Part shown: positions 13,774 to 32,661 of the stretch, one piece after another | Layout of the letters: each line of letters starts with the position of its first letter | Numbering within the stretch: the stretch's first letter is position 1 | Assembly (NCBI GenBank): GCA_964361365.1 | Contig: CAYIBG010000002.1 | Location: 1 to 32,661 of the forward strand | Direction: 5' to 3' | Length of the DNA stretch: 32,661 nucleotides | DNA from: an uncultured Ignavibacteriaceae bacterium | GTDB lineage: Bacteria > Bacteroidota > Ignavibacteria > UBA10030 | Program-made: the position numbers and the translations under genes | The notes under the pieces: generated by a model | Told to the model about the DNA's origin: nothing | The model's database searches: none | What the model saw: the letters and a program-made list of their open reading frames with translations, nothing else

Positions 13774-14214
13774 ATGAGCATTTTTTTCAGTAAGCAATGC
13801 GAGTACGCCCTGCAGGCAGTTTTGTATCTTGCCTTAAAACCTGCAGGGGAGATGACCTCCATAAAAGACCTCGCAGCGAGTCTCGCGATTCCATACCATT
13901 TCGTCGCGAAGATCCTGCAGGATCTCACACATAAAGGTTTGTTGGCTTCGCAGAAAGGGCCGAATGGCGGGTTCACCCTGGCGATAGAGCCGAAAGAGAT
14001 AACGCTCCTCCATATTGTGGAAGCGATTGATGGAGTCGCATTCACTAACGGATGCGTGCTCGGATTTTCTGAGTGTTCCGGGAAGAACCCTTGTGCCGTC
14101 CACAACCAATGGGGGGAGTTGAGAGAGACCATTTATAGCATGCTCGTAAACAAGAATATGGGTGAGATGGCAAGGGACATGAAGAAACCAGAGTACAACC
14201 TGGCGGCAAGTTAA
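13774..14214 (+). CDS. Rrf2 family transcriptional regulator (three-Cys, Fe-S-type)
   Basis: 146 aa. Rrf2 winged-helix N-terminus (CEYALQAVLYLA) and a Cys triad C-x7-C-x5-C (CVLGFSECSGKNPC). Confidence 0.85.
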   Translation: MSIFFSKQCEYALQAVLYLALKPAGEMTSIKDLAASLAIPYHFVAKILQDLTHKGLLASQKGPNGGFTLAIEPKEITLLHIVEAIDGVAFTNGCVLGFSECSGKNPCAVHNQWGELRETIYSMLVNKNMGEMARDMKKPEYNLAAS

Positions 14215-15180: not shown

Positions 15181-15627
15181 GTGTCCCTTATCTTTAGTAA
15201 ATCCTGCGAGTACGCACTGCAGGCCTCTCTGTTTCTGGCCAAGCAGCCGAAGGATGAGTTCGTCCTCCTCCGCGAGATCTCAGACAAACTCGATATTCCT
15301 CATCACTTTCTCAGCAAAGTTCTTCAAACGCTCACACGCGCAGATTTCGTGACGTCGTACAAAGGCGCCAAGGGCGGCTTTACGCTTGCCCGGCCGTCGA
15401 AGGATATTTACCTCATGGAAATTGTCCGTGCCATGGACGGCGACAAGTTCCTGGAAGAGTGTGTCCTTGGTTTTCCCGGTTGCAGTGACAGGACTCCCTG
15501 TCCAGTACATCCCCAATGGAAGCGTGCAAAAGAAATTGTCATGAACATGCTTCAGAAAAAAACGCTTGCAGGGCTCAGCAAGGAGCTCGAACCAAAACTT
15601 GACCTTATAGCGCAACTCTCCGCTTGA
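15181..15627 (+). CDS. Rrf2 family transcriptional regulator (three-Cys, Fe-S-type), paralogue of 13774-14214
   Basis: 148 aa with a GTG start. CEYALQASLFLA helix-turn-helix region and Cys triad CVLGFPGCSDRTPC. Lies 59 nt upstream of the molybdoenzyme alpha gene. Confidence 0.85.
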   Translation: MSLIFSKSCEYALQASLFLAKQPKDEFVLLREISDKLDIPHHFLSKVLQTLTRADFVTSYKGAKGGFTLARPSKDIYLMEIVRAMDGDKFLEECVLGFPGCSDRTPCPVHPQWKRAKEIVMNMLQKKTLAGLSKELEPKLDLIAQLSA

Positions 15628-19103: not shown

Positions 19104-19356
19104 GCCCGATGATTCGCAAAACCCAACGGATTTCGAACTCACACATTATGTCGTACCCGGCGATGTTGGAAGGGATCACGCGGCAGAAATGGCGGAAACG
19201 TTCGTCATCGAACTGAAACGGCTGCGATGGTCGAATGAGAGAATCCTGGATGCCTTTCGAAATCCTTTTTATGCGGGTCCCCATTATGCTCTGAAAGAGC
19301 GAGGGGAACAATATGTCCGTGATTTGGTCGAAAGTGTCAAAAACAGGAAATCCTAA
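19096..19356 (+). CDS. Hypothetical 86-aa protein between the alpha and beta genes
   Basis: The ATG overlaps the alpha gene end by 8 nt. Balanced, non-repetitive composition. It fills an otherwise 276-nt gap. No family recognised. Confidence 0.45.
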   Translation: MAEPDDSQNPTDFELTHYVVPGDVGRDHAAEMAETFVIELKRLRWSNERILDAFRNPFYAGPHYALKERGEQYVRDLVESVKNRKS

Positions 19357-19379
19357 GCTGCCCTTAAGGAGAACCACGT

Positions 19380-20552
19380 ATGCCTAAAGTCTACAATTGG
19401 CAATTAGGTCGTGAAATGGAGTATCCCTACGAGGGAAAACGACCAAAGAGACAGTTTGCGGCCGTGTTCAATATTAACCGCTGCATTGGATGCCAAACTT
19501 GCACGATGGCGTGCAAGAGTACCTGGACCTATTCTAAGGGACAGGAAGCAATGTGGTGGAATAACGTTGAGACGAAACCTTACGGCGGATATCCGCAAAG
19601 TTGGGACGTGAAAACATTGGAGCTTCTCGGGCCACAACCCGGTTGGGATACCGTTAAGGCCGACTCTGAAAAGCCATACGGTGTTTATCGAGGTGAAACT
19701 CTCTTCGAGGCCGCAACAACGAGGGCCACCGGGAGCGGTGAACGGGCACTTGGTTATCTTCCCACGGAAAAGGAATGGCGCTCACCGAACTTCTACGAGG
19801 ACACTGCTTACTCGACGCTTGCATCCAAAGAGGGCCGCACCGCTGACGGCACAAAGCTCCCCGAACACAAAGCTTGGTTTTTTTATTTGCAGCGCATTTG
19901 CAACCATTGTTCGTATCCGGCGTGTCTGGCCGCTTGTCCACGCGGCGCAATTTATAAACGGCCTGAAGATGGAATCGTGCTTATCGACCAAAGCCAATGT
20001 CGGGGCTATCGGAAGTGCGTGGAGCAATGTCCATACAAGAAACCGATGTTTAACTCCGAGACACGGATTTCGGAGAAATGCATAGCCTGTTATCCGCGAG
20101 GAGAAGGTTCCGACCCGCTCACCGAGGGTGAGCCAATGGTCACGCGATGTGTAGCATCCTGCGTCGGGAAAATCCGCCTGCAGGGTTGGATCGACGATCC
20201 GGAGAGTCCCATACATTATCTTGTCCACAAAGCAAAGGTAGCGCTTCCACTTTACCCCCAGTTTGGTACAGAACCCAACATCTACTACATCCCTCCTCGA
20301 TGGGCTCCACGAGCGTACTTGAAACAGATGTTTGGTCCTGGCGTTGACCACGCTCTTACAGAATACGCAAATCCCACGCACGAACTCCTCGGAGTGCTGC
20401 AACTGTTTGGAGCAAGTCAAAACCTTGTTTATAGCTATCGAGTAGACGGAGACGAGGTTGTCGGGTTCGGAAAGCGAAGACAGGAAGTTGTGCGGGTTCC
20501 CATCGAAGATCCCGTGATCGTTCGCTCCGAAAAGCATTTGAATGTGACGTGA
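19380..20552 (+). CDS. nxrB: Molybdoenzyme beta subunit (four Fe-S clusters), NxrB/NarH-like
   Basis: 390 aa with an AAGGAGAA RBS. Cys motifs CIGCQTCTMAC, CNHCSYPACLAACP, CRGYRKCVEQCP and CIACYPR. No signal peptide, so probably exported by hitch-hiking on the Tat-signal-bearing alpha subunit. The N-terminus MPKVYNWQLGR resembles Nitrospira-type NxrB as I recall it. Confidence 0.9.
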   Translation: MPKVYNWQLGREMEYPYEGKRPKRQFAAVFNINRCIGCQTCTMACKSTWTYSKGQEAMWWNNVETKPYGGYPQSWDVKTLELLGPQPGWDTVKADSEKPYGVYRGETLFEAATTRATGSGERALGYLPTEKEWRSPNFYEDTAYSTLASKEGRTADGTKLPEHKAWFFYLQRICNHCSYPACLAACPRGAIYKRPEDGIVLIDQSQCRGYRKCVEQCPYKKPMFNSETRISEKCIACYPRGEGSDPLTEGEPMVTRCVASCVGKIRLQGWIDDPESPIHYLVHKAKVALPLYPQFGTEPNIYYIPPRWAPRAYLKQMFGPGVDHALTEYANPTHELLGVLQLFGASQNLVYSYRVDGDEVVGFGKRRQEVVRVPIEDPVIVRSEKHLNVT

Positions 20553-20599
20553 AAGGAATTCCTGAGACGGTCACCATCGTCCCAAGGAGGGAGAATGAT

Positions 20600-22324
20600 A
20601 TGAAATCCTTATTGATAGTTGTGATCCTTGGCCTCGGATTGTTCGCGATGGGTTTTCGACCCTGGCCAGCGTTTAACCAAGACACTTCTGCTTCGGCTGA
20701 AAATGGAAAAACTCTCTATCTCAAATATTGCACCACATGCCATGGTGTCGATGGAACCGGAGAGGGAACTGCCACTGTCTATCTTTTTCCCAAGCCCCGG
20801 GACTTCACAAAAGGCATTTTCAAGTTCCAGTCAACTCCGTCAGGTTCTCTCCCAACAGACGGAGATCTCGAGCGAACAATCCGCAACGGGATGCCTGGTT
20901 CAGCCATGCCGGCATGGGATGGGTTGTCCGCCGGGGAACGCAAAGATCTTATTTCCTACGTCAAAACTTTTTCAGAGCGATTCAGAACCAACAAACCTTC
21001 TGACCCTTTGGAAATTGAAAAGGAGCCTCAATCAACGCCTGAAATGCTCCGAAACGGCAAGGCAGTGTTCGCGTTGGCAGGCTGCTGGATGTGTCACGGA
21101 AAGAATGGCGCGGGTGATGGTCCGTCTTCCAAAAACATGACGGATGATCTGGGGCGGCCAACACCGCCTTATAATTTTACGAGGGCCGGCGCGTTCAAAG
21201 GCGGCGGAACACCTCAGGACATCTATCGCACGTTTAGCACCGGCATTGGCGGAACTCCGATGCCAGGGTATGGTGAAGATGCCCTCGCCGTTGGGAGGGA
21301 AAGTTTTGGTGATTTGACGAACCTGGAAGGGTATTATACCTCCAACGAAGTCCGAGAGTTTAAGGAGTTCATTTCTCAATGGCCAAAAGAAGAACACCTG
21401 AGCCGCATGAGTCTGGCCGAACGGAAACAACTGGCGGATGATCGTCGGTGGTCCCTTGTCTCCTATGTTCTCTCTCTGTCGAAGTCGGGTAAAACACAAA
21501 TATCGTATACAACCACCGATCATTTGTTAACCAGTGCGACGACAGATGATGTTTCGAAGTTTGGCGATCCTTTTTCCCAGCGCTGGAACGCTGTCAAAGG
21601 CGAAGAACTTTCTTTGATCTCATTGTGGCAAAGAGATACTCCAACAGACCGTGTGAATGTCCAAAGCGTGACAGACGGCAAATCTATCGCGTTTCGGCTT
21701 GAGTGGGAAGACAGTACTCAGGATGACCAAGCGTTGCATGATGCAACATTTGGAGACGCAGCAGCTATTCAATTTCCCCTCAATCCGTCAAGCCAGCCGT
21801 TCTTCGGCATGGGCGACACAAACTTTGCTGTCAATATCTGGCAGTGGAAAAGCTGGTGGGAGGCCGATTCAAAGAAGTACGCAGGTGTGAACAGCGCCTT
21901 TCCCCGTAATGCGACTGATTTCTATCTTTACGATGTTTCAGGCGGTTCTCGAATGGAATACCTTGTGAGCAAAGATTCCGCGAGAATGCTTTCGATACCT
22001 TGGAATGCCGGATGGAGTTCGGGGAATCTTCTCAGTGCGCAATCCAGAAGATCTTCTGTCGAAGACTTGAACGCCAAAGGATTTGGGACGCTTCGTTCTC
22101 AAGGGCCCGCTGGACAAAATGTTGGAGGTAATGGCGTGTGGAAAAATGGGAAGTGGGTGGCTGTTTTCACAAGGTCTCTCGCTTCGCAAGATTTGAACGA
22201 TGTTCCTTTAACATCAAGGAACACGATTCCCGTTGCGTTCGCGGTGTGGGATGGATTTCTCGGTGACCGTAATGGCCAAAAGATGGTGACCAATTGGTAC
22301 ACGCTTAACATTGGGCCAAAATGA
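20600..22324 (+). CDS. Gamma-like subunit: Sec signal + dihaem cytochrome c + EbdC/NxrC-type haem-b (EB_dh) domain fusion
   Basis: ATG 20600 follows an AAGGAGGG RBS and gives the signal peptide MKSLLIVVILGLGLFAMG. CxxCH motifs at 20729-20743 (CTTCH) and 21083-21097 (CWMCH), with MPA/MPG Met-ligand contexts. The C-terminal half has the EB_dh-like pattern (AFRLEWED, DAAAIQFP, FFGMGD, NIWQWKS). Confidence 0.8.
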   Translation: MKSLLIVVILGLGLFAMGFRPWPAFNQDTSASAENGKTLYLKYCTTCHGVDGTGEGTATVYLFPKPRDFTKGIFKFQSTPSGSLPTDGDLERTIRNGMPGSAMPAWDGLSAGERKDLISYVKTFSERFRTNKPSDPLEIEKEPQSTPEMLRNGKAVFALAGCWMCHGKNGAGDGPSSKNMTDDLGRPTPPYNFTRAGAFKGGGTPQDIYRTFSTGIGGTPMPGYGEDALAVGRESFGDLTNLEGYYTSNEVREFKEFISQWPKEEHLSRMSLAERKQLADDRRWSLVSYVLSLSKSGKTQISYTTTDHLLTSATTDDVSKFGDPFSQRWNAVKGEELSLISLWQRDTPTDRVNVQSVTDGKSIAFRLEWEDSTQDDQALHDATFGDAAAIQFPLNPSSQPFFGMGDTNFAVNIWQWKSWWEADSKKYAGVNSAFPRNATDFYLYDVSGGSRMEYLVSKDSARMLSIPWNAGWSSGNLLSAQSRRSSVEDLNAKGFGTLRSQGPAGQNVGGNGVWKNGKWVAVFTRSLASQDLNDVPLTSRNTIPVAFAVWDGFLGDRNGQKMVTNWYTLNIGPK

Positions 22325-22334
22325 GAGGACAACG

Positions 22335-23117
22335 ATGAATACGATATCAGCTGACACGAAAGCGTTGAACGCCGAAGTGCGGGCTCAGATATACAAGATT
22401 CTCGCGAAGTCATTTCTCTATCCGACGAAGGATTTCTTCGATTCTATCGGGACACAGGAATACACCCAGGCGTTGTTGTGTTATTGCTCGTTGAATTCTT
22501 CTTCTTCGGAACTCCAAGCCACGATTCAGGCTGTATGTGAGATGCTCAAAAGTGGGGAGCAGGGGCCGACTCCAGGAACTCTCGAATATGAGTACAATCG
22601 CCTTTTTGCCCATCTTGGCTCGGCGAAATGTCCTCCTTATGAAACCGAATACGGCTATGATAATGTCTTTCAGAAGACTCAGACGATGGCAGATATTGCG
22701 GGGTTTTACAAGGCATACGGTCTGGAAGTTTCAGATACCAATGCAGAACGAGTAGACTTTTTGGGCACGGAGTTGGAGTTCATGGCTTTTCTTTCGCTTC
22801 AGGAGGCGTACGCCAGAGAGCAGGGGGAACATGAGCACATTGAAATCTGTGTTGATACCCAGCGCAAGTTCATGAAAGATCATCTCGGCCGATGGACAGG
22901 GATCTTTACGAAGATTCTCGCGAGAACGACAGAAGAGAAATTTTATGAAAATGCAGGGAAGCAACTGGAAGAGTTCGTCGGAAACGAGCTGGGGCGTCTG
23001 AACGTGTTCCCGGAAGAAGTGACGGCGCCGAGTAAAGAACCACCCGCGAGCCAGGAACCGTTTGGCTGTGAAGGATGCGTGTCTCCCACTTCCGCGGGAT
23101 CCACGGAAAAGTCATGA
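22335..23117 (+). CDS. TorD/NarJ/DmsD-family redox-enzyme maturation chaperone
   Basis: ATG 22335 with a GAGAGGA RBS. TorD-family pattern (YNRLF...PPYETEY, ELEFMAFL). The position after the structural genes mirrors narJ and nxrD. Confidence 0.8.
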   Translation: MNTISADTKALNAEVRAQIYKILAKSFLYPTKDFFDSIGTQEYTQALLCYCSLNSSSSELQATIQAVCEMLKSGEQGPTPGTLEYEYNRLFAHLGSAKCPPYETEYGYDNVFQKTQTMADIAGFYKAYGLEVSDTNAERVDFLGTELEFMAFLSLQEAYAREQGEHEHIEICVDTQRKFMKDHLGRWTGIFTKILARTTEEKFYENAGKQLEEFVGNELGRLNVFPEEVTAPSKEPPASQEPFGCEGCVSPTSAGSTEKS

Positions 23118-23165
23118 CGATGATCGCCCCCAAAAAGGCGCAACAGAGCCACTTCAAGGAAACGA

Positions 23166-23831
23166 ATGAACAATAATGACAGCAAAAACCTCGAACAGAT
23201 GCTCGCGGATTCAGCAAAGCAGCATCACCATCTTTGCCCGCGGCAAGTGCTGGGTGTGCGGATGGGCATAATGGCGGGAAAGATTCTGCAGCTCAATCTG
23301 CCACAAATTGACAAAAGACTGCTGACGATTGTCGAAACCGACGGCTGCATGGTCGATGGTGTTTCGGCGGCCACAAACTGCACCGTGGGGCACAGGACAC
23401 TGCGAGTCGAGGATGAGGGGAAAGTCGCCGCCACCTTTGTCGATACGGTCACAAAGCGGGCGATCCGAATCGCTCCTCGTGCTGGAATTCGCCGTGTGAC
23501 CCAAGAGTATGCCTCAGCCGATTGTTCCCGCTGGGAAGCACAGTTGAAAGGTTACCAACGAATGCCGGACGATGATTTGTTCATTGTGAAGGATGTCGAG
23601 CTCATGTTTTCACTCGAGAAACTCATCAGCCGGAAAGAAAAAAAAGCCATTTGCCAAAGATGTGAGGAAGAGATCAATAACGAGCGGGAAATCACGTCGG
23701 GTGAAACGGTCCTTTGTCGCTCCTGTGTGGGGCAAGGGTATTATCGGCGGCCCACTCAGAGCGACGAGAATGAAACTTTGCGCGATGCCCTCATGACAAG
23801 GACGGGAAGCCAATCGTTCCTCTCCTCATGA
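23166..23831 (+). CDS. FmdE-like domain protein with C-terminal zinc ribbon
   Basis: 221 aa. FmdE-type pattern (HHLCPRQVLGVRMG, ETDGCMVDGVSAATNCTVGHRTL) plus CQRC...CRSC. Confidence 0.7.
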   Translation: MNNNDSKNLEQMLADSAKQHHHLCPRQVLGVRMGIMAGKILQLNLPQIDKRLLTIVETDGCMVDGVSAATNCTVGHRTLRVEDEGKVAATFVDTVTKRAIRIAPRAGIRRVTQEYASADCSRWEAQLKGYQRMPDDDLFIVKDVELMFSLEKLISRKEKKAICQRCEEEINNEREITSGETVLCRSCVGQGYYRRPTQSDENETLRDALMTRTGSQSFLSS

Positions 23832-24080
23832 GTTGCAGTGCAGTCCTCCTCATTCTGCCAATAGCACGAAGTGCCCAAATCCCTGTAAGCTGCACTTTAC
23901 CGTCAACGGTTCTCTCTTCCCAAAAATGAAAAAAGCAGGCAGGCTCAGTTTCCCAGAGATAGGAACAGACTGCTTAAAAGGGCCAGCAAAGGCCAATTCT
24001 CGCCTATAAAATAAGATAAAAAACTCCGATTTCTGGTACAAGATTTGCCGTGCGTTCGGCGCATACGCTATCCATCCACC

Positions 24081-25982
24081 ATGTCTTCGCGCTATAAGAT
24101 CAAAATACCCGACATCGAATTTTGGAAAAGCCTCGTTCCATGCCAGATGGGTTGTCCTATCCACACAGACGCTGGGAGGTATGTTCAGCTGATTGCTGAG
24201 CAGAAGTACAAGGAAGCCTACCTCACCGCCCGGTCGCCCAACCCGTTTGCGAGTGTCTGTGGACGCGTGTGCGCAGCCCCGTGCGAAGACTGGTGTCGAC
24301 GCGGAAAGATCGACGCTCCGGTGAGCATTCGGGCGCTCAAGAGATTTGTCACAGAGAAGTATGGAGTCGAGTCACTCGACCCCGATGCACAGGATCAACT
24401 CTTCCAGGGAGCCGATGAGCCGGGTAACAAATGGCTCTGGCATCTCCCGATGCAAGTACAATCACAGAAAAACGTCGCAAAGAACGAGAAGGTTGCAGTC
24501 GTTGGGTCGGGTCCCGCCGGTTTGTCGTGCGCGCATGACCTGGCTTTGATGGGATACAAGGTGACGATGTTTGAGGCGACCAATGTCGCGGGCGGCATGT
24601 TAAGGCATGGCATCCCCGAGTATCGTCTTTCACGATCCCTCATCGACAAAGAAATCGAGAAGATCACGTCGCTGGGAGTCGAAATCCGCTACAACAAACC
24701 TCTGACTGAACGGTTTGGCATCAAAGACCTTCGCAAGGAAGGGTTCGAGGCCGTCTTCATCTCTGTCGGGACTCAAAAAGGGCGCGACCTGGCAATTGAA
24801 GGAGCGGACCTCGACGGCGTTGTCAAGGCGATTGATTATCTCATCAACATCAACAACGGGTATCGAGTTGACGTCGGAAAGCGAGTGCTGATTATCGGCG
24901 GTGGCTTTGTCGCGTTTGATGCTGCGCGGATGGCTCTCAGAGGCAGTCCGGAAGCTCAGCCGGCGGACATACACGAGGCCGTGGATGTAGCCCGAACAGT
25001 CAAGCGCAAAGGCGCCGAAGAAGTTCATATCGCAAGCCTGGAATCGTTCGAGGAAATGCCCGTCCTTCGCACGTCGCAGGGTCATGAAGAGTTTGAGGAA
25101 GCAAAGAAAGAAGGCGTGGTTTTCCACCCACAACGGGGGCCCAAGCGAATTCTCGGACAAAGCGGCAAAGTCAGAGGAATCGAGTTCATCGGTGTCAAGC
25201 ACACGTATGACGAGAACGGCAAATTCAATCCAGTCTATGATCCCTCGTTCACGGAAACGCTGGATGTCGATTCGGTCATCCTTGCCATCGGCCAACAAAC
25301 GGATCTTTCGTTCATCAAAAAAACAGACGAAATCGAACTTACGCCGGGCAAGCTCATTAAAATCGATCCCACGACGCTCGCCACATCGGCCGGGGGAATC
25401 TTTGCCGGCGGCGACGCAGCCTTTGGACCGAGAAACATTATTGACTCTGTAGCGAACGGGAAGCGTGCGGCTCTTTCTGTCGACGAATTCCTGAGAAGGA
25501 AAAAACCTGAAACATACTACCACCTTTCCATTGAAAAAATCCCAACCTCACGATTTACGCGTCCTGAAGATTTCGAACAACACGAACGGCAAGCCCCGCC
25601 CACCATCGATCTCAATCGGAGAACGGGCATTTCCGAAGTCGAGCAGGGATACACCGAAGAGCAAGCGCGAAGACAGGCTGAACGATGTCTGTCGTGCCAT
25701 GTGCAAACGATCTACGATGCGGAAAAGTGCGTGATGTGCAACAGGTGCGTTGACGTGTGTCCTGAGTACTGTCTGCAACTTGTTCCGTTCGCAGAACTCG
25801 ACGTCGACGAGAAAACCAAGGGACAATTGCTTGAACAGTACAGTGTCGACCCGCTCCGGCCTGCCTCAGCGATGATCAAAGACGACGAAACGTGCATTCG
25901 CTGCGGCCTTTGTGCTCTGCGATGCCCGACGGATGCGATGACAATGGAAGTGTTCTATTACGAACAACGAGAAGCAGTTTGA
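24081..25982 (+). CDS. GltD/NfnB-like NAD(P)H-dependent flavo-iron-sulfur oxidoreductase with C-terminal 2x[4Fe-4S] ferredoxin domain
   Basis: 633 aa from ATG 24081. N-terminal Cys clusters (CQMGCP, CGRVCAAPCEDWC). Two Rossmann motifs (VAVVGSGPAGLSCA, VLIIGGGFVAFDAA). C-terminal CVMCNRCVDVCP and CIRCGLCALRCP. No signal peptide or TM helix. The stop lies 14 nt before the Rieske gene. Confidence 0.8.
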   Translation: MSSRYKIKIPDIEFWKSLVPCQMGCPIHTDAGRYVQLIAEQKYKEAYLTARSPNPFASVCGRVCAAPCEDWCRRGKIDAPVSIRALKRFVTEKYGVESLDPDAQDQLFQGADEPGNKWLWHLPMQVQSQKNVAKNEKVAVVGSGPAGLSCAHDLALMGYKVTMFEATNVAGGMLRHGIPEYRLSRSLIDKEIEKITSLGVEIRYNKPLTERFGIKDLRKEGFEAVFISVGTQKGRDLAIEGADLDGVVKAIDYLININNGYRVDVGKRVLIIGGGFVAFDAARMALRGSPEAQPADIHEAVDVARTVKRKGAEEVHIASLESFEEMPVLRTSQGHEEFEEAKKEGVVFHPQRGPKRILGQSGKVRGIEFIGVKHTYDENGKFNPVYDPSFTETLDVDSVILAIGQQTDLSFIKKTDEIELTPGKLIKIDPTTLATSAGGIFAGGDAAFGPRNIIDSVANGKRAALSVDEFLRRKKPETYYHLSIEKIPTSRFTRPEDFEQHERQAPPTIDLNRRTGISEVEQGYTEEQARRQAERCLSCHVQTIYDAEKCVMCNRCVDVCPEYCLQLVPFAELDVDEKTKGQLLEQYSVDPLRPASAMIKDDETCIRCGLCALRCPTDAMTMEVFYYEQREAV

Positions 25983-25996
25983 ACGAAAGGTTATCC

Positions 25997-26536
25997 ATGA
26001 AACTCCTGGAAAACAAGAAGGAAAAATTTTTGGGGAAAGGTTCAGAAAACCGCAGAACTTTTCTTCAGAAACTGGGACTGGGCGGATTACTTGCCGGACT
26101 CACCGGGTTCGCCTATCAGTCCGTGCGGTCGCTAATTCCGAATGTTCTTTATGAAGCGCCGCAGAAATTTAAGGTGGGTCTGCCGGCTCAGCTTGCGGAT
26201 GGTGTGACGTTCCTGGAAGACCGCCGGCTCTACGTCTTCAAAGAGGGTAAATCCTTTTATGCGATTTCCGGAGCCTGCACACACCTCGGCTGCACGGTGA
26301 AGTACACAAAACTGAATAGTCCCAAGCACGTGGAAATCGGCGATGAAAAGAAGGCCATCAATTTTGAATTTCAGTGTCCCTGCCACGGGTCGAAGTTTTA
26401 TGCCGAGGGGACAAATTATGCAGGGCCGGCTCCGCGGCCGCTCTATTGGTACAAACTTGAGGTCTCGCCCGACGACGGTCAGCTGGTCGTCAACCTGGGT
26501 GAAGAAGTGGAACAGAATTTTCGTTTAACCGTGTAG
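25997..26536 (+). CDS. Rieske [2Fe-2S] subunit of a cytochrome bc-type complex
   Basis: ATG 25997. Twin-arginine and TM region NRRTFLQKLGLGGLLAGL. Rieske boxes CTHLGC and CPCHGS. Confidence 0.85.
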   Translation: MKLLENKKEKFLGKGSENRRTFLQKLGLGGLLAGLTGFAYQSVRSLIPNVLYEAPQKFKVGLPAQLADGVTFLEDRRLYVFKEGKSFYAISGACTHLGCTVKYTKLNSPKHVEIGDEKKAINFEFQCPCHGSKFYAEGTNYAGPAPRPLYWYKLEVSPDDGQLVVNLGEEVEQNFRLTV

Positions 26537-26546
26537 GAGCCGTCTG

Positions 26547-27872
26547 ATGGAAATCCTCGAATTAACGAAGCGGGTCTACAACAAGCTTACCTGGACATGG
26601 AATCCCGGCAGTGAAAAAGAAGCCGGGGATGCGATCGTCAAGAATCTGCTCCTCCACTGGTTTCCGAACAAGATTTCAAAGGAGAGCCTATCGTGGAAGT
26701 ATTCCATGTGGTTAGGAACCATCTCTTTCGTGTTGTTCGGCATTCTCACCGTCACGGGCGTCGTCCTCATGTTTCTGTATGTCCCGTCCGTTGAGAGGGC
26801 ATATTCATCAGTAAAAGACATCGAATTCGTCGTGTCGTTCGGCTGGCTCTTACGAGCGATGCATCGGATCTCTGCGCATCTCATGGTGGCCGTCGTGTTC
26901 CTCCACATGGTTCGAGTGTTCTTGACGGGAGCATACAAGAAAGGCGTTGCGGTCGGCTCCAATCGTCCGATGAATTGGATTGTTGGCCTCATCCTGCTCA
27001 TTATGACACTTCTGTTGTCTTTCACGGGATACTTGTTGCCGTGGGATCAACTGGCATACTGGGCCATCACGGTGGGCACCAACATCGCGAGTGCCGCGCC
27101 GGTTATCGGCGAGTGGATTCGTTTTATCCTACTGGGGGGAACGATGATCGATCAAAACGCTTTGATACGATTTTATGTTCTGCATGTCTTCTTCCTGCCG
27201 ATGATCGTTGTGTTCCTGTTTTCGTACCACATGTGGCGTGTTCGAAAAGATGGTGGACTCGCCGTAGCAGACCGGCTCGCACAGGATGAAAAAGTCCAGG
27301 AAGTCAAACCCGTCAAAACTAAAACCTTCTCGCTGCTCGGCATTACCAATGGAACAAGTGTTCATGTCCGATCGCTGGCGATTGATGAAGAAAAGAATTC
27401 CGTGTCATCTGCCCCGAATCTGCTGAGGAGAATTTGGATCGTCACGCTCGTGACCTTTCTCGCCGTTTTTGTCCTGTCGTTTATCTTCCGGGCGCCGCTC
27501 GAAGCTCCGGCGAATCCTTCGGTGACGCCGAACCCGGCAAAAGCGCCGTGGTATTTTTTGTGGCTGCAGGAACTCGTGACGATCACCACGCTCAAGGTCG
27601 GCTCGTTCACCATCAACGGCGCACTCATCGGAGGCATCATCCTTCCGGCAGTGTTGCTCGGCCTTGGAATCTGGTGGCCGTACCGGGACCGCTCGGACCT
27701 GAATACAGTCGGCATCTGGTTCGCACATGAACGTCGTAAGCAAAACTACATCTTTCTCGCAATCTGCCTCTTCATTATTGTGCTTACGATCGTCGGTACG
27801 TTCCTGAGAGGCCCTTACTGGAACTTCTACTGGCCGTGGGAACAGTGGCCAACGATGCCGGTGAAATTCTGA
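26547..27872 (+). CDS. Cytochrome b (fused b6-like and subunit IV-like halves)
   Basis: 441 aa, multi-TM. Haem-ligand His pairs (RAMHRISAHLM; VLHVFF...SYHMW). The Qo-site motif reads APWY (27543-27554). Confidence 0.85.
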   Translation: MEILELTKRVYNKLTWTWNPGSEKEAGDAIVKNLLLHWFPNKISKESLSWKYSMWLGTISFVLFGILTVTGVVLMFLYVPSVERAYSSVKDIEFVVSFGWLLRAMHRISAHLMVAVVFLHMVRVFLTGAYKKGVAVGSNRPMNWIVGLILLIMTLLLSFTGYLLPWDQLAYWAITVGTNIASAAPVIGEWIRFILLGGTMIDQNALIRFYVLHVFFLPMIVVFLFSYHMWRVRKDGGLAVADRLAQDEKVQEVKPVKTKTFSLLGITNGTSVHVRSLAIDEEKNSVSSAPNLLRRIWIVTLVTFLAVFVLSFIFRAPLEAPANPSVTPNPAKAPWYFLWLQELVTITTLKVGSFTINGALIGGIILPAVLLGLGIWWPYRDRSDLNTVGIWFAHERRKQNYIFLAICLFIIVLTIVGTFLRGPYWNFYWPWEQWPTMPVKF

Positions 27873-27897
27873 TGTACCTTTGAGAGGACGAGAATCA

Positions 27898-29121
27898 ATG
27901 GACCACAAGACCATCAAAGAAAAACTGAGTTTTGTAAAACTCGACAGGTTGATCGTGAATATCGTTGGCATCGCACTGTTCCTGGTCGTTGCGTTCAGCG
28001 TGTACGATTACTTTCAACCGGAGTGGCTGAGTTATCAGGCTGAGTTCAGAGACCTTGTGGAAGGGAAGTTCGGTCCTGAGCGAGCCGAGGCAGTTCCGTC
28101 CGGATTCCAGCAGATTTACCTGAAAACGTTGAACCGCACGGACCGATGCATCACATGTCACCAAGGGTTTGAGTGGACAGGGCTTGAAAACGCGCCTGAG
28201 CCTTTTCGAACCCACCCCAAGGAAATCCTGAAGACGCATCCGATTTCCCGGTACGGTTGTACAACATGTCACGGCGGCCAGGGTTATGCGACAGATATGG
28301 AACCTGCTCACGGATTGATCGAACACTGGGAAGAGCCCGTGCTGGGGAAGGAACTGGGGAATTTCTATGTCATGAGCGATAAGAAGGCGCTGATGCAAAT
28401 GCAGTGTAACGCCTGTCATCGTTTCGACAAGGAAACCAAAGGGGCGGGGTACATGAACCGAGCGAAGCAGCTCGTGGCCGAAAAGGGATGCCGCGCTTGC
28501 CACGTCATCAATGGCCGGGGAGGCACCGTGGCCCCCGACCTGACGCAGGAAGGCGACAAATCAGCCGCACAATTCAATTACGAGCGCATCAAAGGTCTGC
28601 ATTCCGAGTTTACGTGGCATGTTTCGCACTTTAAGAACCCGAAAGAACTTGTTCCCGAAACAGTCATGCCGAACTTCAACTTTGGCAGTGCCGATGCTCA
28701 AGCGTTGGCTATGCTGGTCATGAGCTGGAAGAGAAACGAGATCCCGGTGAGCTACATACCGAACAATAATTTCAAAGACACACCGACAAAAGAAGAGCTG
28801 GAAAAGGAAGAGAAGATGCTGAAAGGACCGGGGGCATTCTTCGTGAAGAAGAACTGTTTCGTGTGTCACTCTGTCTCCACGCTCGGCATCGATGCAGCCG
28901 CTCAAATAGGCCCTGACCTCGCGATGGCCGTCGAGGATGTTCAGTCCCGCTTTGGAAGAACGCTTGATGATTTTCTTGCAAAGCCGACGGGAACGATGGA
29001 GGTGGTGTTGTCTACCATGATCACGCTGACGGAAGAAGAGCGAAAGGAAGCGATCGAGAAGCTCCGGTTCGCCTACGAGCTGAAGCAAAAAGAAAAGAAA
29101 AAAATTGTTGTAAAGAAGTAA
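27898..29121 (+). CDS. Membrane-anchored pentahaem cytochrome c
   Basis: ATG 27898 with a GAGAGGA RBS. N-terminal TM helix. Five CxxCH motifs (CITCH, CTTCH, CNACH, CRACH, CFVCH). Confidence 0.8.
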   Translation: MDHKTIKEKLSFVKLDRLIVNIVGIALFLVVAFSVYDYFQPEWLSYQAEFRDLVEGKFGPERAEAVPSGFQQIYLKTLNRTDRCITCHQGFEWTGLENAPEPFRTHPKEILKTHPISRYGCTTCHGGQGYATDMEPAHGLIEHWEEPVLGKELGNFYVMSDKKALMQMQCNACHRFDKETKGAGYMNRAKQLVAEKGCRACHVINGRGGTVAPDLTQEGDKSAAQFNYERIKGLHSEFTWHVSHFKNPKELVPETVMPNFNFGSADAQALAMLVMSWKRNEIPVSYIPNNNFKDTPTKEELEKEEKMLKGPGAFFVKKNCFVCHSVSTLGIDAAAQIGPDLAMAVEDVQSRFGRTLDDFLAKPTGTMEVVLSTMITLTEEERKEAIEKLRFAYELKQKEKKKIVVKK

Positions 29122-29168
29122 ATTACCCGGGACGATCCGGAAATCACAATCACAAAAGGAGGTTCTAT

Positions 29169-31028
29169 ATGAAAACAAAACTCTTTGCAATCATTGCGCT
29201 CGTCATAACGTTGGTTTTATTGGCTGGCTGCGGTGGCGAACAACGAGGGAGAACGGCCCGTTCTGATGTGCAGGAAGCGGCGCTCAAAAGTTACGTCGCA
29301 CCGGGCGACCTGGACGAGTATTATATCTTCAAATCGGGCGGCCACTCGGGGCAAGTGTACGTCTACGGTATCCCCTCGATGCGTCATATCTCAACCATCC
29401 CCGTGTTCAGTCCCTATGCCGCAACGGGATACGGATTCGATAAAGAATCGAAGGAAATGCTCGGCGGGTTCACGTGGGGCGATGCGCACCATCCGTCACT
29501 CAGCGAAACAGACGGGGACTACGACGGGCGCTGGTTGTTCATTTCGGATAACGCGAACAATCGCATGGCTCGGGTCGACTTGCGCGATTTCAAGACCAAG
29601 CAGATCTTTGGACCGATCCCCAACGTCTCAGGGAATCATTGCTCCTCGTTCAGCACCGAGAACACGGAATACATCCTCGCCGGTTCGAGGTTTTCGATTC
29701 CTCTGCCGAAGGGTTCTTATGAGAAGATCGAGGATTATGCAACGAAGTACAAAGGGGTTGTCGCAGGGATCGAAGTCAACCCGAAGAGCGGCAACATGAC
29801 TCTTGGCTGGCAAGTACTGATGCCGCCATTTAACTATGATTTGGGCGATGCAGGAAAGGGTCCGAGTAAGGAATGGGGCTTCTGGACGTGCTACAACAGC
29901 GAGCGAGCGATCGGGAAACTTGAAGTTACTTCCACGCAGAAAGACCGTGACTATGTTGTTGCGGTAAACTGGAAATCCGCGGAAAAGGCAATCAAAGACG
30001 GCAAGTTCAGAATGATCGGCGGTGTCAAGGTGATTGACCCGAAACAAACCGAAGGAGTGGTATATCTGATGCCGGCTGCGAAGTCGCCGCACGGAGTGGA
30101 CATAAGCCCGGACGGCAAGTATATCATTGCCAGCGGAAAGTTGCAGAGCATTACCACGGTCTTCAATTTCGAAAAAATGCTGACGGCCATTCAAAAGAAG
30201 GATTTCACCGGTAACGAAGATGGAATTCCCGTCCTGAATTACGACGCCGTCAAAGACGCTGAAGTCAATGTGGGTCTCGGTCCATTGCATACACAGTTCG
30301 ACGATAAGGGTTTCGCCTACACGTCTCTGTTCGTTGAAAGTGCGGTTGCGAAGTGGAAGCTGGGAACATGGGAAGTCGTGGATAAAATCCCGGTATCGTA
30401 CAACATCGGCCACCTGACAGCGGCAGAAGGCGACACGAAGAATCCAGACGGCAAGTACCTGGTCGCCCTCAACAAGCTTTCCCATGGGCGGCATTTGAGC
30501 GTGGGTCCTTCGCAGCCAGAGTCCTCGCAGCTCATCGATATCAGCGGGGAAAAAATGGGATTACTCATGGATGCGTTCACAGAGCCCGAGCCTCATTACG
30601 CTCAGATCGTCAAAGCGGACAAGATAAAGCCGATCGAAGTATATCCGAAAGAGGAAAACAAACACCCGAAGGCGATCTGGGATATCAAGGACTCGAAGGT
30701 TGTCCGCAACGGCAGGAACGTTGAGGTGTACATGATTGCGGTTCGCTCAAGCTTCACGCCGACCAGTGTCGAAGTGAACAAAGGGGACAAGGTCACGATT
30801 TATATGACGAACATCGAGCAGACAACGGATGAACTGCACGGGTTAGGGATCAACGAGTATAACATCAACGTTGTCGTGGACCCGGGCGAGACGAAGACCA
30901 TCGAGTTCGTGGCGGATAAGCCGGGAGTGTTCCCGTTTTACTGCACGAATTTTTGCTCAGCGCTGCACCAGGAGATGCAAGGATATCTTCTCGTGAAGGG
31001 CGGAGGCAGTTCGGTTGTCTTAAACTAG
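29169..31028 (+). CDS. nosZ: Nitrous-oxide reductase, clade II (Sec-type, predicted lipoprotein)
   Basis: 619 aa with an AAAGGAGG RBS. No twin-arginine motif. Lipobox LLAGC (Cys21, 29229-29231). CuZ-region motif GDAHHP. C-terminal CuA motif CTNFCSALHQEM. Confidence 0.92.
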   Translation: MKTKLFAIIALVITLVLLAGCGGEQRGRTARSDVQEAALKSYVAPGDLDEYYIFKSGGHSGQVYVYGIPSMRHISTIPVFSPYAATGYGFDKESKEMLGGFTWGDAHHPSLSETDGDYDGRWLFISDNANNRMARVDLRDFKTKQIFGPIPNVSGNHCSSFSTENTEYILAGSRFSIPLPKGSYEKIEDYATKYKGVVAGIEVNPKSGNMTLGWQVLMPPFNYDLGDAGKGPSKEWGFWTCYNSERAIGKLEVTSTQKDRDYVVAVNWKSAEKAIKDGKFRMIGGVKVIDPKQTEGVVYLMPAAKSPHGVDISPDGKYIIASGKLQSITTVFNFEKMLTAIQKKDFTGNEDGIPVLNYDAVKDAEVNVGLGPLHTQFDDKGFAYTSLFVESAVAKWKLGTWEVVDKIPVSYNIGHLTAAEGDTKNPDGKYLVALNKLSHGRHLSVGPSQPESSQLIDISGEKMGLLMDAFTEPEPHYAQIVKADKIKPIEVYPKEENKHPKAIWDIKDSKVVRNGRNVEVYMIAVRSSFTPTSVEVNKGDKVTIYMTNIEQTTDELHGLGINEYNINVVVDPGETKTIEFVADKPGVFPFYCTNFCSALHQEMQGYLLVKGGGSSVVLN

Positions 31029-31037
31029 TAATTCCTG

Positions 31038-31068
31038 ATCGAGCCCTCCCGTGGAGGGAGGGCTCGAT
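31038..31068 (+). terminator. Strong GC-rich hairpin immediately after nosZ (terminator, attenuator or mRNA-stabilising stem)
   Basis: 13-bp perfect stem ATCGAGCCCTCCC/GGGAGGGCTCGAT with the 5-nt loop GTGGA. It is followed by TGGTTTG, which is only a weak U tract. Confidence 0.5.
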
Positions 31069-31094
31069 TGGTTTGCGGAAAGGATGTTCTTGAA

Positions 31095-31736
31095 ATGAAA
31101 AAGCTCATACAAAAGGCAACAACGTTTTTTGAGACTCCCGTCGACATACGAAGTCGACTCGTGGTGCTCGTTGCTGCAATTCTCCTGGTGCCCACATACT
31201 TTTTCCCTCTGTGGAACATGGAGCTCTATTCCAATCAGTTTCCTGAAGGTCTGGTGCTGAATATTTACTCGTACAAGCTCGAAGGCGGCAAATCTCCCTA
31301 CCGTGACGACCTCAAGGAGATCAACTCGCTGAACCATTACATCGGAATGCGACCGCTTCAGGAAGACGACTTTACCGAATTCAAATGGATTCCGTTTGTG
31401 ATCGGCGGAGTCATACTTCTCGCCCTGAGAGCCGTTGTGCTCGGCAAGATGTCTGAGCTCGTGGATTTGTTCGTGCTCTTCACGTATTTCGGCTTGTTTT
31501 CTCTCTGGGCCTTCTATCATAAGATGTATCTCTATGGACACGAGTTGGATCCAACATCAGCGATCAAAGTGGACCCCTTCACGCCGCCGATTTTTGGCCA
31601 CATGACGATGGCGAACTTCGAAGTTTACAGCTATCCGCAGCTCGGTTCATACTTCATGGGCGCAATGCCAATTCTGTTGCTCCTGGCAATGTGGCTTTCA
31701 CGACGTACAGCGCAAAAGGAAACGGCGGCCCGGTGA
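31095..31736 (+). CDS. Membrane protein downstream of nosZ (NosB-position candidate)
   Basis: 213 aa from ATG 31095 with a GGAAAGGA RBS. About four TM helices. It sits in the position held by the nosB membrane gene in clade II nos clusters. Homology not verified. Confidence 0.5.
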   Translation: MKKLIQKATTFFETPVDIRSRLVVLVAAILLVPTYFFPLWNMELYSNQFPEGLVLNIYSYKLEGGKSPYRDDLKEINSLNHYIGMRPLQEDDFTEFKWIPFVIGGVILLALRAVVLGKMSELVDLFVLFTYFGLFSLWAFYHKMYLYGHELDPTSAIKVDPFTPPIFGHMTMANFEVYSYPQLGSYFMGAMPILLLLAMWLSRRTAQKETAAR

Positions 31737-31737
31737 A

Positions 31738-32550
31738 ATGAGAATTCCAGGACTCATCATACCGAAGGAACACGGTGCATGGGCAGTCTTGCTCGTCCCG
31801 ATGATTGTCGTGTCGGGTGTCGTGGGAACATTCAGTCTCAACCTGTTGTTTCTGACTGGATCGGCGCTGCCAATGTTCATGAGCTCCGGCCCGGTGCAAA
31901 TGATCCTGAGGAACAGGCTCGTCGGTTCTCTGGAGAGTGAGAAGATGAGGGAGGCGAAGCTTTCGGCGGGACTGTATTTGGTCGCGAGCCTGATACTGGC
32001 GACGCCTCTTCTCCTGCAGGGCTTCTGGCTGCTGGCGGGGTTTGGTTTTCTGGCTGCCGTTTCGTTCTTGCTGAGTTTCTTCATTTCCAAAGGAACTCAC
32101 AAGACAGTTTGGTCCGACCTCCTGGCAGTCTTTGGTTTAACTCTGAGCGCTCCGAGCAGCTATTATGTACTGCAAGGATCGATCGACTCTCTATCGCTTG
32201 AGCTTTGGCTCCTGAATTTCTTGTTCTTTGGGTCAAGCGTCTTCTACGTTCATATGAAGATCACAGCGACAAAGTTTAAAGGCTCTGAACTGAAAGCACC
32301 GCAAAAACTCCTCCTCGGGAAGATGAACATCGCGTATCATGTTGTTGTGCTGGCGATTATTACGACGCTCGTGGCGCTGAATTACACCGAGGAATTGGCG
32401 ATGGGTGCGTTTGCGCCAATCTTGATTCACTCAATCTACGGTACAATCAAACTTTCCACAAAGGTCAGCTTCAAACGGCTGGGCTTCCTGCTTCTTGGCC
32501 AATCCATTGTGTTCGGCATTTTAGTGACCCTTTCGCTCAGGGTATCATGA
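31738..32550 (+). CDS. YwiC-like polytopic membrane protein
   Basis: 270 aa. The N-terminus PKEHGAWAVLLVP matches the P-x-(Q/E)HGAWAM motif I associate with the YwiC-like family. Multiple TM helices. The ATG lies 1 nt after the previous stop. Confidence 0.5.
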   Translation: MRIPGLIIPKEHGAWAVLLVPMIVVSGVVGTFSLNLLFLTGSALPMFMSSGPVQMILRNRLVGSLESEKMREAKLSAGLYLVASLILATPLLLQGFWLLAGFGFLAAVSFLLSFFISKGTHKTVWSDLLAVFGLTLSAPSSYYVLQGSIDSLSLELWLLNFLFFGSSVFYVHMKITATKFKGSELKAPQKLLLGKMNIAYHVVVLAIITTLVALNYTEELAMGAFAPILIHSIYGTIKLSTKVSFKRLGFLLLGQSIVFGILVTLSLRVS

Positions 32551-32661
32551 AAAAAAAGATCCTTACTGGAATTGCCTGGATTGCAGCGAGTTTGGGAACC
32601 CTCAGCGCGCAGTCGCAGAACGATCTTCAAGGATTGATCTCGAAGGCAAAGCCCGGCGACA
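32547..32661 (+). CDS. nosD: NosD (periplasmic copper-maturation beta-helix protein), N-terminal fragment truncated by the window end
   Basis: ATGA overlap with the previous gene. Signal peptide MKKKILTGIAWIAASLGTLSA, then LQGLISKAKPGD, the typical NosD N-terminal LQ..I..A.PGD motif. Only 38 codons are visible. Confidence 0.5.
   Translation, partial: MKKKILTGIAWIAASLGTLSAQSQNDLQGLISKAKPGD

Follow-up and report, generated by a model that had tools for sequence, protein, structure and literature searches.

A Rieske/cytochrome b complex with a putative NAD(H)-binding flavoprotein subunit encoded beside clade II nitrous oxide reductase

We identified four close-packed genes on the plus strand (24081-29121) of a 32,661-nucleotide stretch of DNA from an uncultured Ignavibacteriaceae bacterium (contig CAYIBG010000002.1; this whole stretch is hereafter the window). 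They encode an iron-sulfur (Fe-S) flavoprotein, a Rieske protein, a fused cytochrome b and a pentahaem cytochrome c, and are followed by clade II nosZ, the gene for nitrous oxide (N2O) reductase, and by nosB. We infer from sequence that 24081-29121 encodes a single Rieske/cytochrome b quinol oxidase complex that has a cytoplasmic NAD(H)-binding flavoprotein as its fourth subunit and that is dedicated to the downstream NosZ. Membership of the flavoprotein in the nos-bc unit is well supported by gene neighbourhoods, and sequence comparison gives equally good support to the homology of the four-gene complex, subunit by subunit, to the kuste4569-73 complex of the anaerobic ammonium-oxidising (anammox) bacterium Kuenenia. 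We consider it very probable that the flavoprotein is a subunit wired to the b haems. It is a prediction that the subunits associate physically, that there is an extra haem and that NADH is the nucleotide used; which way electrons flow is the most conjectural point, and NAD+ reduction as the main physiological direction of the flavoprotein is a tentative first choice.

Subunits of the proposed complex and their anammox counterparts

The first gene of the unit (24081..25982, plus strand) runs from an ATG at 24081 to a TGA at 25982 and encodes a GltD/NfnB-like Fe-S flavoprotein of 633 residues. An alternative TTG start at 24045 is unlikely, because homologues are 631-633 residues long and align from residue 1. 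Pfam profiles identify a Fer4_20 domain (residues 20-93, E-value 9.6e-19), a Pyr_redox_2 domain (residues 137-459, 2e-26) and two Fer4 motifs (residues 544-620, 1.3e-10). The protein has no transmembrane (TM) segment or signal peptide (maximum KD19 1.37), as expected for a cytoplasmic protein. Its plan comprises six N-terminal cysteines that would bind two clusters, Rossmann folds for FAD and for NAD(H), and a C-terminal 2x[4Fe-4S] domain. Of 83 homologues, 82-83 retain the six N-terminal cysteines, and all 83 have the C536/C539 pair and the eight cysteines of the ferredoxin motifs. The closest relatives in the Protein Data Bank (PDB; E-values from 1e-78 to 1e-35) are NfnA (9n5u, 1.8e-78), a StnC-like protein (8oh5) and NfnB (4ylf/5jca). 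An AlphaFold2 run with a 39-sequence alignment (77-95% identical) returned a mean pLDDT (predicted local distance difference test) of 46.5. The fold assignment rests on sequence matches to solved structures. The flavoproteins of the NfnB/GltD/SudA/DPD type share the two-cluster Fer4_20 domain and the FAD and nicotinamide Rossmann folds, whereas the window protein has an additional C-terminal 2x[4Fe-4S] domain, a different nucleotide-site motif (SLE for YRR) and a bc complex as a fixed neighbour. We found no NfnA, GltB or SudB partner gene in the window or in related loci.

As a general rule for Rossmann folds, the 2'-phosphate of NADPH is held by a pair of arginines, and NADH is favoured where the residue is acidic. 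The window flavoprotein carries S319-L320-E321 at the end of the second strand of the nicotinamide Rossmann fold, a position occupied by YRR in the Kuenenia subunit, Thermotoga maritima NfnB (4ylf_B), Pyrococcus furiosus NfnII (5vj7_A) and NfnA (9n5u_A). Every non-anammox homologue examined has (S/C)-L-E instead of Y-R-R (83 in the genome family alignment, ~130 motif matches overall), with the C-L-E variant in a few homologues. Taken with the general Rossmann rule, S-L-E therefore predicts NADH rather than NADPH as the substrate, and the motif suggests that the nucleotide site of non-anammox flavoproteins is of the NADH type and not of the NADPH type. A 22-residue insert in the same fold (residues ~276-311; window 24900-25010) partly repeats the preceding helix (AFDAARMALRG ... 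AVDVARTVKRKGA). This insert is conserved across the non-anammox family and is absent from Kuenenia and Nfn proteins.

The Rieske [2Fe-2S] protein (25997..26536, plus strand; Pfam Rieske) starts with an ATG at 25997. Its N-terminus is Tat-like (RRTFL), and its cluster-binding boxes read CTHLGC and CPCHGS (box II CPCHGSKF). The best PDB matches are two Kuenenia Rieske proteins, Kuste4569 (9rk4, 2.1e-21) and Kustd1480 (9rk3, 2.3e-19), followed by a b6f Rieske protein (3.3e-12). The hydrogen-bonding Ser132 is present in 78 of 78 homologues, and position 134 is Tyr or Phe. The box II serine is thus kept as in Kuenenia, and the Tyr/Phe position shows the same two states as Kuste4569 and Kustd1480. 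These two Kuenenia proteins have measured potentials of +303 mV and +335 mV, respectively (Hauser et al., 2025, PMC12954380). The authors considered such values to exceed what a canonical menaquinol Q cycle would call for and to suit the transfer of the second electron to NAD(P)+, and counted them in favour of NAD(P)+ reduction.

The third gene (26547..27872, plus strand) encodes a 441-residue protein in which cytochrome b6 and subunit IV are fused, as judged from Pfam (Cytochrome_B, plus a weak Cytochrom_B_C match), from alignments to b6 and Kuenenia proteins and from TM prediction. Seven TM segments are predicted, three of them in the subunit-IV part. In Kuenenia, by contrast, a 256-residue b6 and a 240-residue subunit IV are separate proteins, and subunit IV has five helices; the N-terminal half of the window protein is 48% identical to the former and the C-terminal half 33% identical to the latter. 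The four histidine ligands of the b haems are essentially invariant and have b6-type spacing. The Qo motif is KAPWYF, and APWY, which is also found in Kuenenia, is present in 154 of 154 homologues; an APWY clade of cytochrome b was defined by Kao and Hunte (2014, PMC4122944). Trp55 occupies the position of the haem cN cysteine (CxGG) of b6 and Kuenenia, and all non-anammox homologues have W, Y, G or F there. Haem cN is thus predicted to be absent from the window cytochrome b and its non-anammox homologues. The best NCBIfam matches of the protein are both below cutoff (ExtP, 246 bits against a cutoff of 290; ExtQ, 74 against 150). ExtP, a b-type cytochrome, and ExtQ, a membrane protein, belong to a 'selenite/tellurite reduction operon', which hints at a related Rieske/cytochrome b module there.

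Three residues that form a predicted extra-haem interface in Kuenenia have counterparts in the window. In an AlphaFold3 model of the Kuenenia complex, cytochrome b His43 is a ligand of an extra haem b between the monomers, and the interface further includes cytochrome b Arg247 and oxidoreductase Arg511 (PMC12954380). These residues correspond to His37, Arg233 and flavoprotein Arg555 of the window. His37, which aligns with His43, is found in all but one cytochrome b sequence (75 of 76), and Arg233 (76 of 76) and Arg555 (83 of 83) are found in all.

The fourth gene (27898..29121, plus strand) encodes a membrane-anchored pentahaem cytochrome c with matches to Pfam cytochrome c families, five CXXCH motifs and one N-terminal TM segment. 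Its start is likely the ATG at 27898 (407 residues) rather than the TTG at 27880. Exactly five CXXCH motifs are also found in 64 of 64 homologues. Only the TM anchor and haems 1-2 align with the Kuenenia multihaem subunit (29% identity).

Rieske/cytochrome b complexes with NAD(P) oxidoreductase subunits have reportedly been described in Kuenenia by Kartal and colleagues (2013) and de Almeida and colleagues (2016). For direct protein comparison we used the kuste4569-74 orthologous locus of a Kuenenia sp. (L004 among our numbered loci). The window flavoprotein aligns with the Kuenenia oxidoreductase subunit over its full length, including the C-terminal dicluster domain (33% identity, E-value 2e-98). 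The two flavoproteins share the same four-cluster plan (two N-terminal and two C-terminal Fe-S clusters), and both systems are linked to a high-potential terminal enzyme. There are also differences. The flavoprotein gene is second in Kuenenia and first here; the Kuenenia cytochrome b has the haem cN cysteine where the window type has W or Y; the Kuenenia cytochrome c has six or eight haems and that of the window five; the Kuenenia flavoprotein has YRR where the window protein has SLE and, in addition, the 22-residue insert; and the linked enzyme is a hydroxylamine oxidoreductase (HAO)-like octahaem protein in Kuenenia and NosZ here. Moreover, window-type hosts appear heterotrophic and lack an anammoxosome. 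The two Kuenenia complexes are designated 'R/b-3' (kuste4569-4574) and 'R/b-2' (kustd1480-1485), and all subunits of the kuste4569-73 complex co-migrate experimentally (Hauser et al., 2025, PMC12954380). A preliminary description of this DNA had proposed the likeness to Kuenenia, and both the PDB search and the direct alignments bear it out for each subunit. Its gene layout (a 633-residue flavoprotein, 14 nt to the Rieske gene, cytochrome b, a five-haem cytochrome c and nosZ downstream) was likewise correct, and the Fer4_20, Pyr_redox_2 and Fer4 domains that it expected in 24081-25982 are all found.

Compared with canonical b6f and bc1 complexes, the window complex has the expected Q-cycle hardware, namely a Rieske protein, two b haems with b6-type histidine spacing and a subunit-IV-type Qo motif. 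It differs in lacking cytochrome f or c1 and haem cN and in possessing a histidine-containing N-terminal extension, a pentahaem cytochrome c and the cytoplasmic flavoprotein. A further comparison is with cytochrome b subfamily G, which spans many phyla and whose genes lie near genes for large NAD(P)-binding Fe-S oxidoreductases (Dibrova et al., 2017, PMC5600118). In the same study, short and long cytochromes b correlate with presence and absence of the CxGG haem-cN motif, and the long cytochrome b of clade G' occurs in 'large conserved operons ... of an unknown function'. We liken the window cytochrome b to the subfamily G kind (anammox 'R/b-2/R/b-3') by its features rather than by phylogenetic placement.

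Conservation of the unit in genomes and metagenomes

Scanning one genome per GTDB species with the flavoprotein, we identified 322 loci that encode a relative, of which the best 80 were examined. Flavoproteins of these 80 loci are 59-95% identical to the window protein, and the genome titles name Ignavibacteria/Bacteroidota, a KSB1 bacterium and Acidobacteriota (Blastocatellia, Pyrinomonadaceae, Terriglobia and Thermoanaerobaculia). The order flavoprotein-Rieske-cytochrome b-pentahaem cytochrome c (c5)-NosZ-NosB, all on one strand, is present in every one of the 80 that has enough downstream DNA, with a single exception. The flavoprotein gene stands beside Rieske/cytochrome b genes in about 75 of 76 genome loci. 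In the exception, L027 (11888-14308), no Rieske gene follows within 2.4 kb downstream, where an unrelated open reading frame (ORF) is found instead; this may reflect rearrangement or misassembly. Across loci, flavoproteins that are closer to the window protein come with closer versions of the other five proteins as well (identities to the window correlate at r = 0.92-0.97).

The genes are tightly packed. In the window, the spacers are 14 nt between the flavoprotein and Rieske genes, 10 nt between Rieske and cytochrome b, 25 nt between cytochrome b and cytochrome c and 47 nt between cytochrome c and nosZ. The gap between flavoprotein and Rieske genes has a median of 34 nt across loci and is replaced by overlaps of 4 or 8 nt in some lineages.

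Because the genome survey was seeded with the flavoprotein, we also scanned metagenomes using only cytochrome b as the seed. This gave matches in about 600 stretches, of which we retrieved the best 80; in 38 of these, at least 3 kb of upstream DNA is available. The flavoprotein gene is present in 37 of the 38. The sole locus without it, L162 (44-12495), has genes for NosG- and NosH-like Fe-S proteins directly before Rieske-cytochrome b-c5, and these are in turn preceded by a nosZ fragment, a nosB-like gene and nosD, F, Y and L. To judge by this arrangement, NosGH and the flavoprotein may replace one another as partners on the cytoplasmic side. The preliminary description had regarded absence of the flavoprotein gene from orthologous nos-bc loci as reason to abandon its proposal; the gene is present in essentially all such loci.

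The module also occurs with other terminal enzymes. In L086 and L087, a flavoprotein that is 44% identical to the window protein and has the same insert and a C-L-E motif is followed by a FixS-like protein, Rieske, b6, subunit IV and a five-haem cytochrome c (L086 7812-18353). Downstream are genes for DsbD_2, a dihaem cytochrome c, a cbb3-type oxidase (CcoN, FixO) and FixG. The cytochrome b of these loci is split into b6 and subunit IV yet lacks the haem cN cysteine. In L143 (1401-12505), L145 and L147, a molybdopterin oxidoreductase (819 residues), an Fe-S protein, NrfD and a 533-residue cytochrome c precede the module, and no NosZ follows. The terminal enzyme thus varies (NosZ, cbb3 oxidase, molybdenum (Mo) enzyme or, in Kuenenia, an HAO-like protein), and flavoprotein, Rieske, cytochrome b and multihaem cytochrome c therefore form the conserved core. 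Two further candidate loci, L088 and L089, were rejected as family members, as a polyferredoxin, not a GltD-like protein, precedes Rieske and cytochrome b.

All organism names in two large protein searches and all 80 genome titles refer to metagenome-assembled genomes or uncultured organisms, and no cultured carrier was found among them. Papers on the genomes of cultured Ignavibacteria report that Ignavibacterium album has no Rieske/cytochrome b complex (PMC3362086) and that Melioribacter roseus has no cytochrome bc1 genes (PMC3534657).

Clade II nos clusters with Rieske/cytochrome b genes were reportedly described by Sanford and colleagues in 2012, and Wolinella is said by Hein and colleagues (2017) to combine a NosGH/C1/C2 module with a bc complex. 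As in other clade II clusters, the window type has a Sec-type NosZ followed by NosB, with NosD/F/Y/L downstream in relatives, together with a Rieske/cytochrome bc complex as the quinol-oxidising electron donor. Unlike the Wolinella type, the window and L001-L003 lack NosG, NosH, C1 and C2, and the bc genes lie inside the cluster and come with a cytoplasmic flavoprotein and a pentahaem cytochrome c.

Rieske/cytochrome b genes beside clade II nosZ and the NAD(P)-oxidoreductase subunits of anammox complexes are each already known. An occurrence outside anammox bacteria, which the preliminary description had presented as new, is not new in general: Dibrova et al. (2017, PMC5600118) already noted such oxidoreductase genes near subfamily G cytochrome b 'in many other cases', in a text that nowhere mentions nosZ or nitrous oxide. 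The nos-cluster literature that could be searched labels the genes merely 'Fe-S', 'Rs', 'cyt-b' and 'cyt-c'. Our full-text literature searches, whose scope did not extend to Sanford 2012, Dibrova 2013 or the Hein/Simon reviews, returned no paper that makes the NosZ link. Within the searchable literature, the following therefore appear to be undescribed: the assignment of the NosZ-linked complex to the anammox type of NAD(H)-linked complexes, the near-universality of the flavoprotein in this type of nos-bc cluster, the signature of fused cytochrome b, no haem cN, five haems and S-L-E, and the alternative pairing of the module with a cbb3 oxidase.

How electrons reach clade II NosZ, and how much energy is conserved on the way, has yet to be settled for the organisms regarded as the chief biological sink of N2O. 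Our surveys make an anammox-type complex a fixed part of a widespread nos cluster (322 genome flavoprotein loci and ~600 metagenome cytochrome b loci). They also provide a second, independent lineage in which electron splitting from quinol to NAD could be tested outside anammox bacteria.

Possible directions of electron flow

The host phyla are presumed to use menaquinone. In the reading that we rank first, menaquinol would be oxidised at the Qo site (APWY). One electron would reach the Rieske cluster and, by way of the five haems of the membrane-bound cytochrome c, NosZ in the periplasm, which would reduce N2O to N2 (E0' ~ +1.35 V). The other would cross haems bL and bH to the cytoplasmic face. 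Rather than serving only quinone reduction, it would there enter the flavoprotein at its C-terminal dicluster domain, a transfer that may be mediated by a haem bound to His37 of both cytochrome b monomers. Four Fe-S clusters would then carry electrons to FAD, and NAD+ would be reduced. Overall, the complex would perform electron bifurcation at the Qo site, as has been proposed for Kuenenia. The resulting NADH could re-enter complex I and raise the proton yield of N2O respiration. To our knowledge, Qo-site bifurcation to NAD(P)H in anammox bc complexes has never been tested biochemically.

We rank Qo-site bifurcation to NAD+ first because the Rieske determinants are conserved and menaquinone is presumably the quinone of the host phyla. 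The proximity of the same module to another very high-potential sink, the cbb3 oxidase of L086 and L087, also counts in its favour. Our confidence in bifurcation is modest, because the energetics are tight, the hosts look heterotrophic and a remaining n-side quinone site would act as a short circuit. By our own arithmetic, the downhill step from menaquinone (~-70 mV) to the Rieske cluster (~+300 mV) yields ~370 meV, and the uphill cost is ~250 meV to NAD+ plus the membrane potential crossed. The potentials and Rieske values used here are those of Hauser et al. (2025, PMC12954380).

Several observations weigh against bifurcation, in addition to these energetics. The upstream part of the window encodes alanine dehydrogenase, a malic enzyme-PTA fusion, 2-oxoacid:ferredoxin oxidoreductase and acetyl-CoA transferase, in keeping with hosts that look heterotrophic, and heterotrophic cells would normally need NADH to be oxidised, not made. 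An intact Qi (n-side quinone) site, if present, would short-circuit NAD+ reduction. Haem cN, which is part of the Kuenenia models, is absent here. The module of L143, L145 and L147 follows a Mo-oxidoreductase/NrfD unit and has no obvious high-potential reductase adjoining it. Finally, the non-anammox members of the family are known as sequences only.

The same four-subunit complex may instead run backwards, with the flavoprotein as an NADH-dehydrogenase input module; this is the main rival reading, which we take seriously but regard as rather unlikely. Electrons would pass from NADH through FAD and the Fe-S wire to haem bH and an n-side quinone site; the quinol, formed on the spot, would be oxidised at Qo, and an ordinary Q cycle would supply c5 and NosZ. 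On this view the operon would encode a self-contained NADH:N2O chain (or, with cbb3, an NADH:O2 chain) that is functionally NDH-2 plus bc in one complex. The apparent heterotrophy of the hosts fits this reading well, as do the NADH-type (S/C)-L-E at the Y-R-R position, NADH being the catabolic carrier, and the co-travel across phyla of the whole unit from NAD(H) to terminal reductase, which suits a plug-in respiratory chain. The motif does not decide the matter, because NADH produced by bifurcation would also be the right substrate for complex I. Precedent comes from Dibrova et al. (PMC5600118), who proposed that an ancestral cytochrome b may have borne a cytoplasmic oxidoreductase subunit, cited FNR bound to b6f and described four-helical membrane cytochromes as the usual anchors for protruding oxidoreductase subunits. 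However, the energy conserved by such a chain would at best equal that of NDH-2 plus bc and would fall below that of complex I plus bc, and Hauser et al. (PMC12954380) rejected this direction for Kuenenia on the ground of energy conservation. It depends on a putative functional n-side quinone site, and it leaves unexplained both the elaborate, highly conserved wire (59-95% identity across phyla) and a Rieske protein of the high-potential type in hosts that are presumed to use menaquinone.

Since one wire serves both directions, the complex might also act as a two-way redox valve that links the b haems to the NAD(H) pool, or the NfnB-like FAD might bifurcate or confurcate electrons by a flavin-based mechanism together with another partner, for instance ferredoxin, with direction and partners set by the redox state of the cell. 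We consider this improbable: the closest solved relatives are Nfn-type bifurcating flavoproteins and a ferredoxin-dependent 2-oxoacid oxidoreductase is encoded in the genome neighbourhood, but the conserved unit has no NfnA-like or ferredoxin gene. Still less credible is a flavoprotein that does not bind cytochrome b at all, acting either on its own as a soluble NAD(P)H oxidoreductase (sulfide-dehydrogenase, NfnB or GltD type) or in NosZ maturation or activation. Its domains are those of a widespread soluble family and it has no TM segment; moreover, L027 has the flavoprotein without a downstream Rieske gene, and L162 has NosG/NosH-like genes in its place beside R/b-c5. Against this stand the near-universal fixed place beside Rieske/cytochrome b (about 75/76 genome loci, 37/38 cytochrome b-seeded loci), which survives a change of terminal enzyme (cbb3 in L086, Mo enzyme in L143, HAO-like protein in Kuenenia), and the 4- or 8-nt overlap of the flavoprotein stop with the Rieske start in some lineages. 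The usual partner gene (NfnA, GltB) is not found nearby, and the Kuenenia subunits, including the homologous oxidoreductase, co-migrate (Hauser et al., PMC12954380).

The two directions predict measurable activities, either quinol- and N2O-dependent NAD+ reduction or NADH:N2O oxidoreductase activity. If the flavoprotein is an NADH input module, the operon would be a compact respiratory chain that moves between phyla. If the complex bifurcates, the expected growth yield of these N2O reducers changes. The boldest version of Qo-site bifurcation is that a bc complex in hundreds of uncultured, presumably mostly heterotrophic N2O reducers labelled as Ignavibacteria, KSB1 and Acidobacteriota splits the electrons of menaquinol, sending one to N2O and the other uphill to NAD+, with the NADH re-oxidised by complex I; we hold this to be conceivable but doubtful. 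If true, such an NAD-cycle would, by our arithmetic, roughly triple the charges translocated per quinol relative to the Q cycle, providing a mechanistic reason for efficient growth on trace N2O. It would also take Qo-site bifurcation to a pyridine nucleotide beyond anammox bacteria for the first time, in the form of a portable module that serves cbb3 oxidases too.

Genes flanking the unit

The nosZ gene (29169..31028, plus strand) encodes a Sec-type (clade II) N2O reductase that scores 913 bits on the Sec-dependent NCBIfam model TIGR04246 (cutoff 625) and contains Pfam nos_propeller and cupredoxin domains. Its N-terminus (29169-29240) is a lipoprotein-type signal (LVLLAGCGG), and NosZ may thus be membrane-tethered rather than free in the periplasm. 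Directly 3' lies an ORF for a NosB-like polytopic membrane protein (31068..31736, plus strand; start likely the ATG at 31095), assigned from TM prediction and from its conserved place after nosZ. The ORF has no Pfam or NCBIfam match, and a NosB-like protein with 53-97% identity is encoded at this place in nearly all related loci. It is followed by a gene for a YwiC-like membrane protein (31738..32550, plus strand; Pfam YwiC, 2.7e-15). The YwiC domain is joined to NosD in relatives: L001-L003 encode a 688-residue YwiC-NosD fusion, followed by nosF, nosL and nosY. The window ends upstream of any nosD/F/Y/L, and these genes are known from L001-L003.

The sole sizeable gap before the unit is an intergenic region of 249 nt (23832..24080), which is presumed to contain the promoter. 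Scans of 23000-32661 for sigma-70 promoters and terminators gave counts no higher than in shuffled sequence; the same shuffle-level scan predicted no plus-strand terminator between the flavoprotein and Rieske genes. A search of 117 regions upstream of the flavoprotein gene (250 nt each) for a common motif, including palindromes and FNR-type boxes, yielded none that was usable. GTGAC-N4-GTCAC was found in 8 of the 117 regions and an FNR-like box in 1.

Two Rrf2-family genes (13774-14214 and 15181-15627) lie within 1.5 kb of each other, flanking a gene for an S-adenosylmethionine-dependent methyltransferase, just upstream of a nitrite oxidoreductase (NXR)-type cluster. The second of them (15181..15627, plus strand; NCBIfam rrf2_super, 114 bits, with a weaker NsrR match) possibly encodes a regulator of the downstream respiratory genes and is given here as context. 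An Rrf2 gene is found upstream of the flavoprotein gene in ~25 loci of the Ignavibacteria type and, among loci of the Acidobacteriota type, just in L082 (a weak 26% match).

The NXR-type cluster (15687-23831) is a complete periplasmic set directly upstream of the nos-bc unit. Besides the alpha, beta and gamma subunits, it encodes a chaperone of the NarJ-like kind and a zinc-finger protein resembling FmdE. A Tat signal is present in the alpha subunit, which aligns with Kuenenia NXR-A along its full length (PDB 7b04_B, 1421 bits), and the gamma subunit contains two cytochrome c domains and an EB_dh domain. To judge from sequence, the enzyme may either reduce nitrate or oxidise nitrite, the latter possibly with N2O as acceptor. 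Besides the window, NXR and nos-bc occur together in L001-L003, L031 and L037, and the other loci surveyed lack the pairing; their orientation is divergent in L001-L003 and L031 and the same in L037. The pairing is not conserved across the surveyed loci, and the NXR cluster was rejected as part of the system; the weight that had earlier been placed on this neighbour was misplaced, its presence being incidental. A small ORF without family assignment lies between the NXR alpha and beta genes in both the window (19096-19356, 86 residues) and L001 (3269-3544, 91 residues), and may encode a conserved NXR-associated protein.

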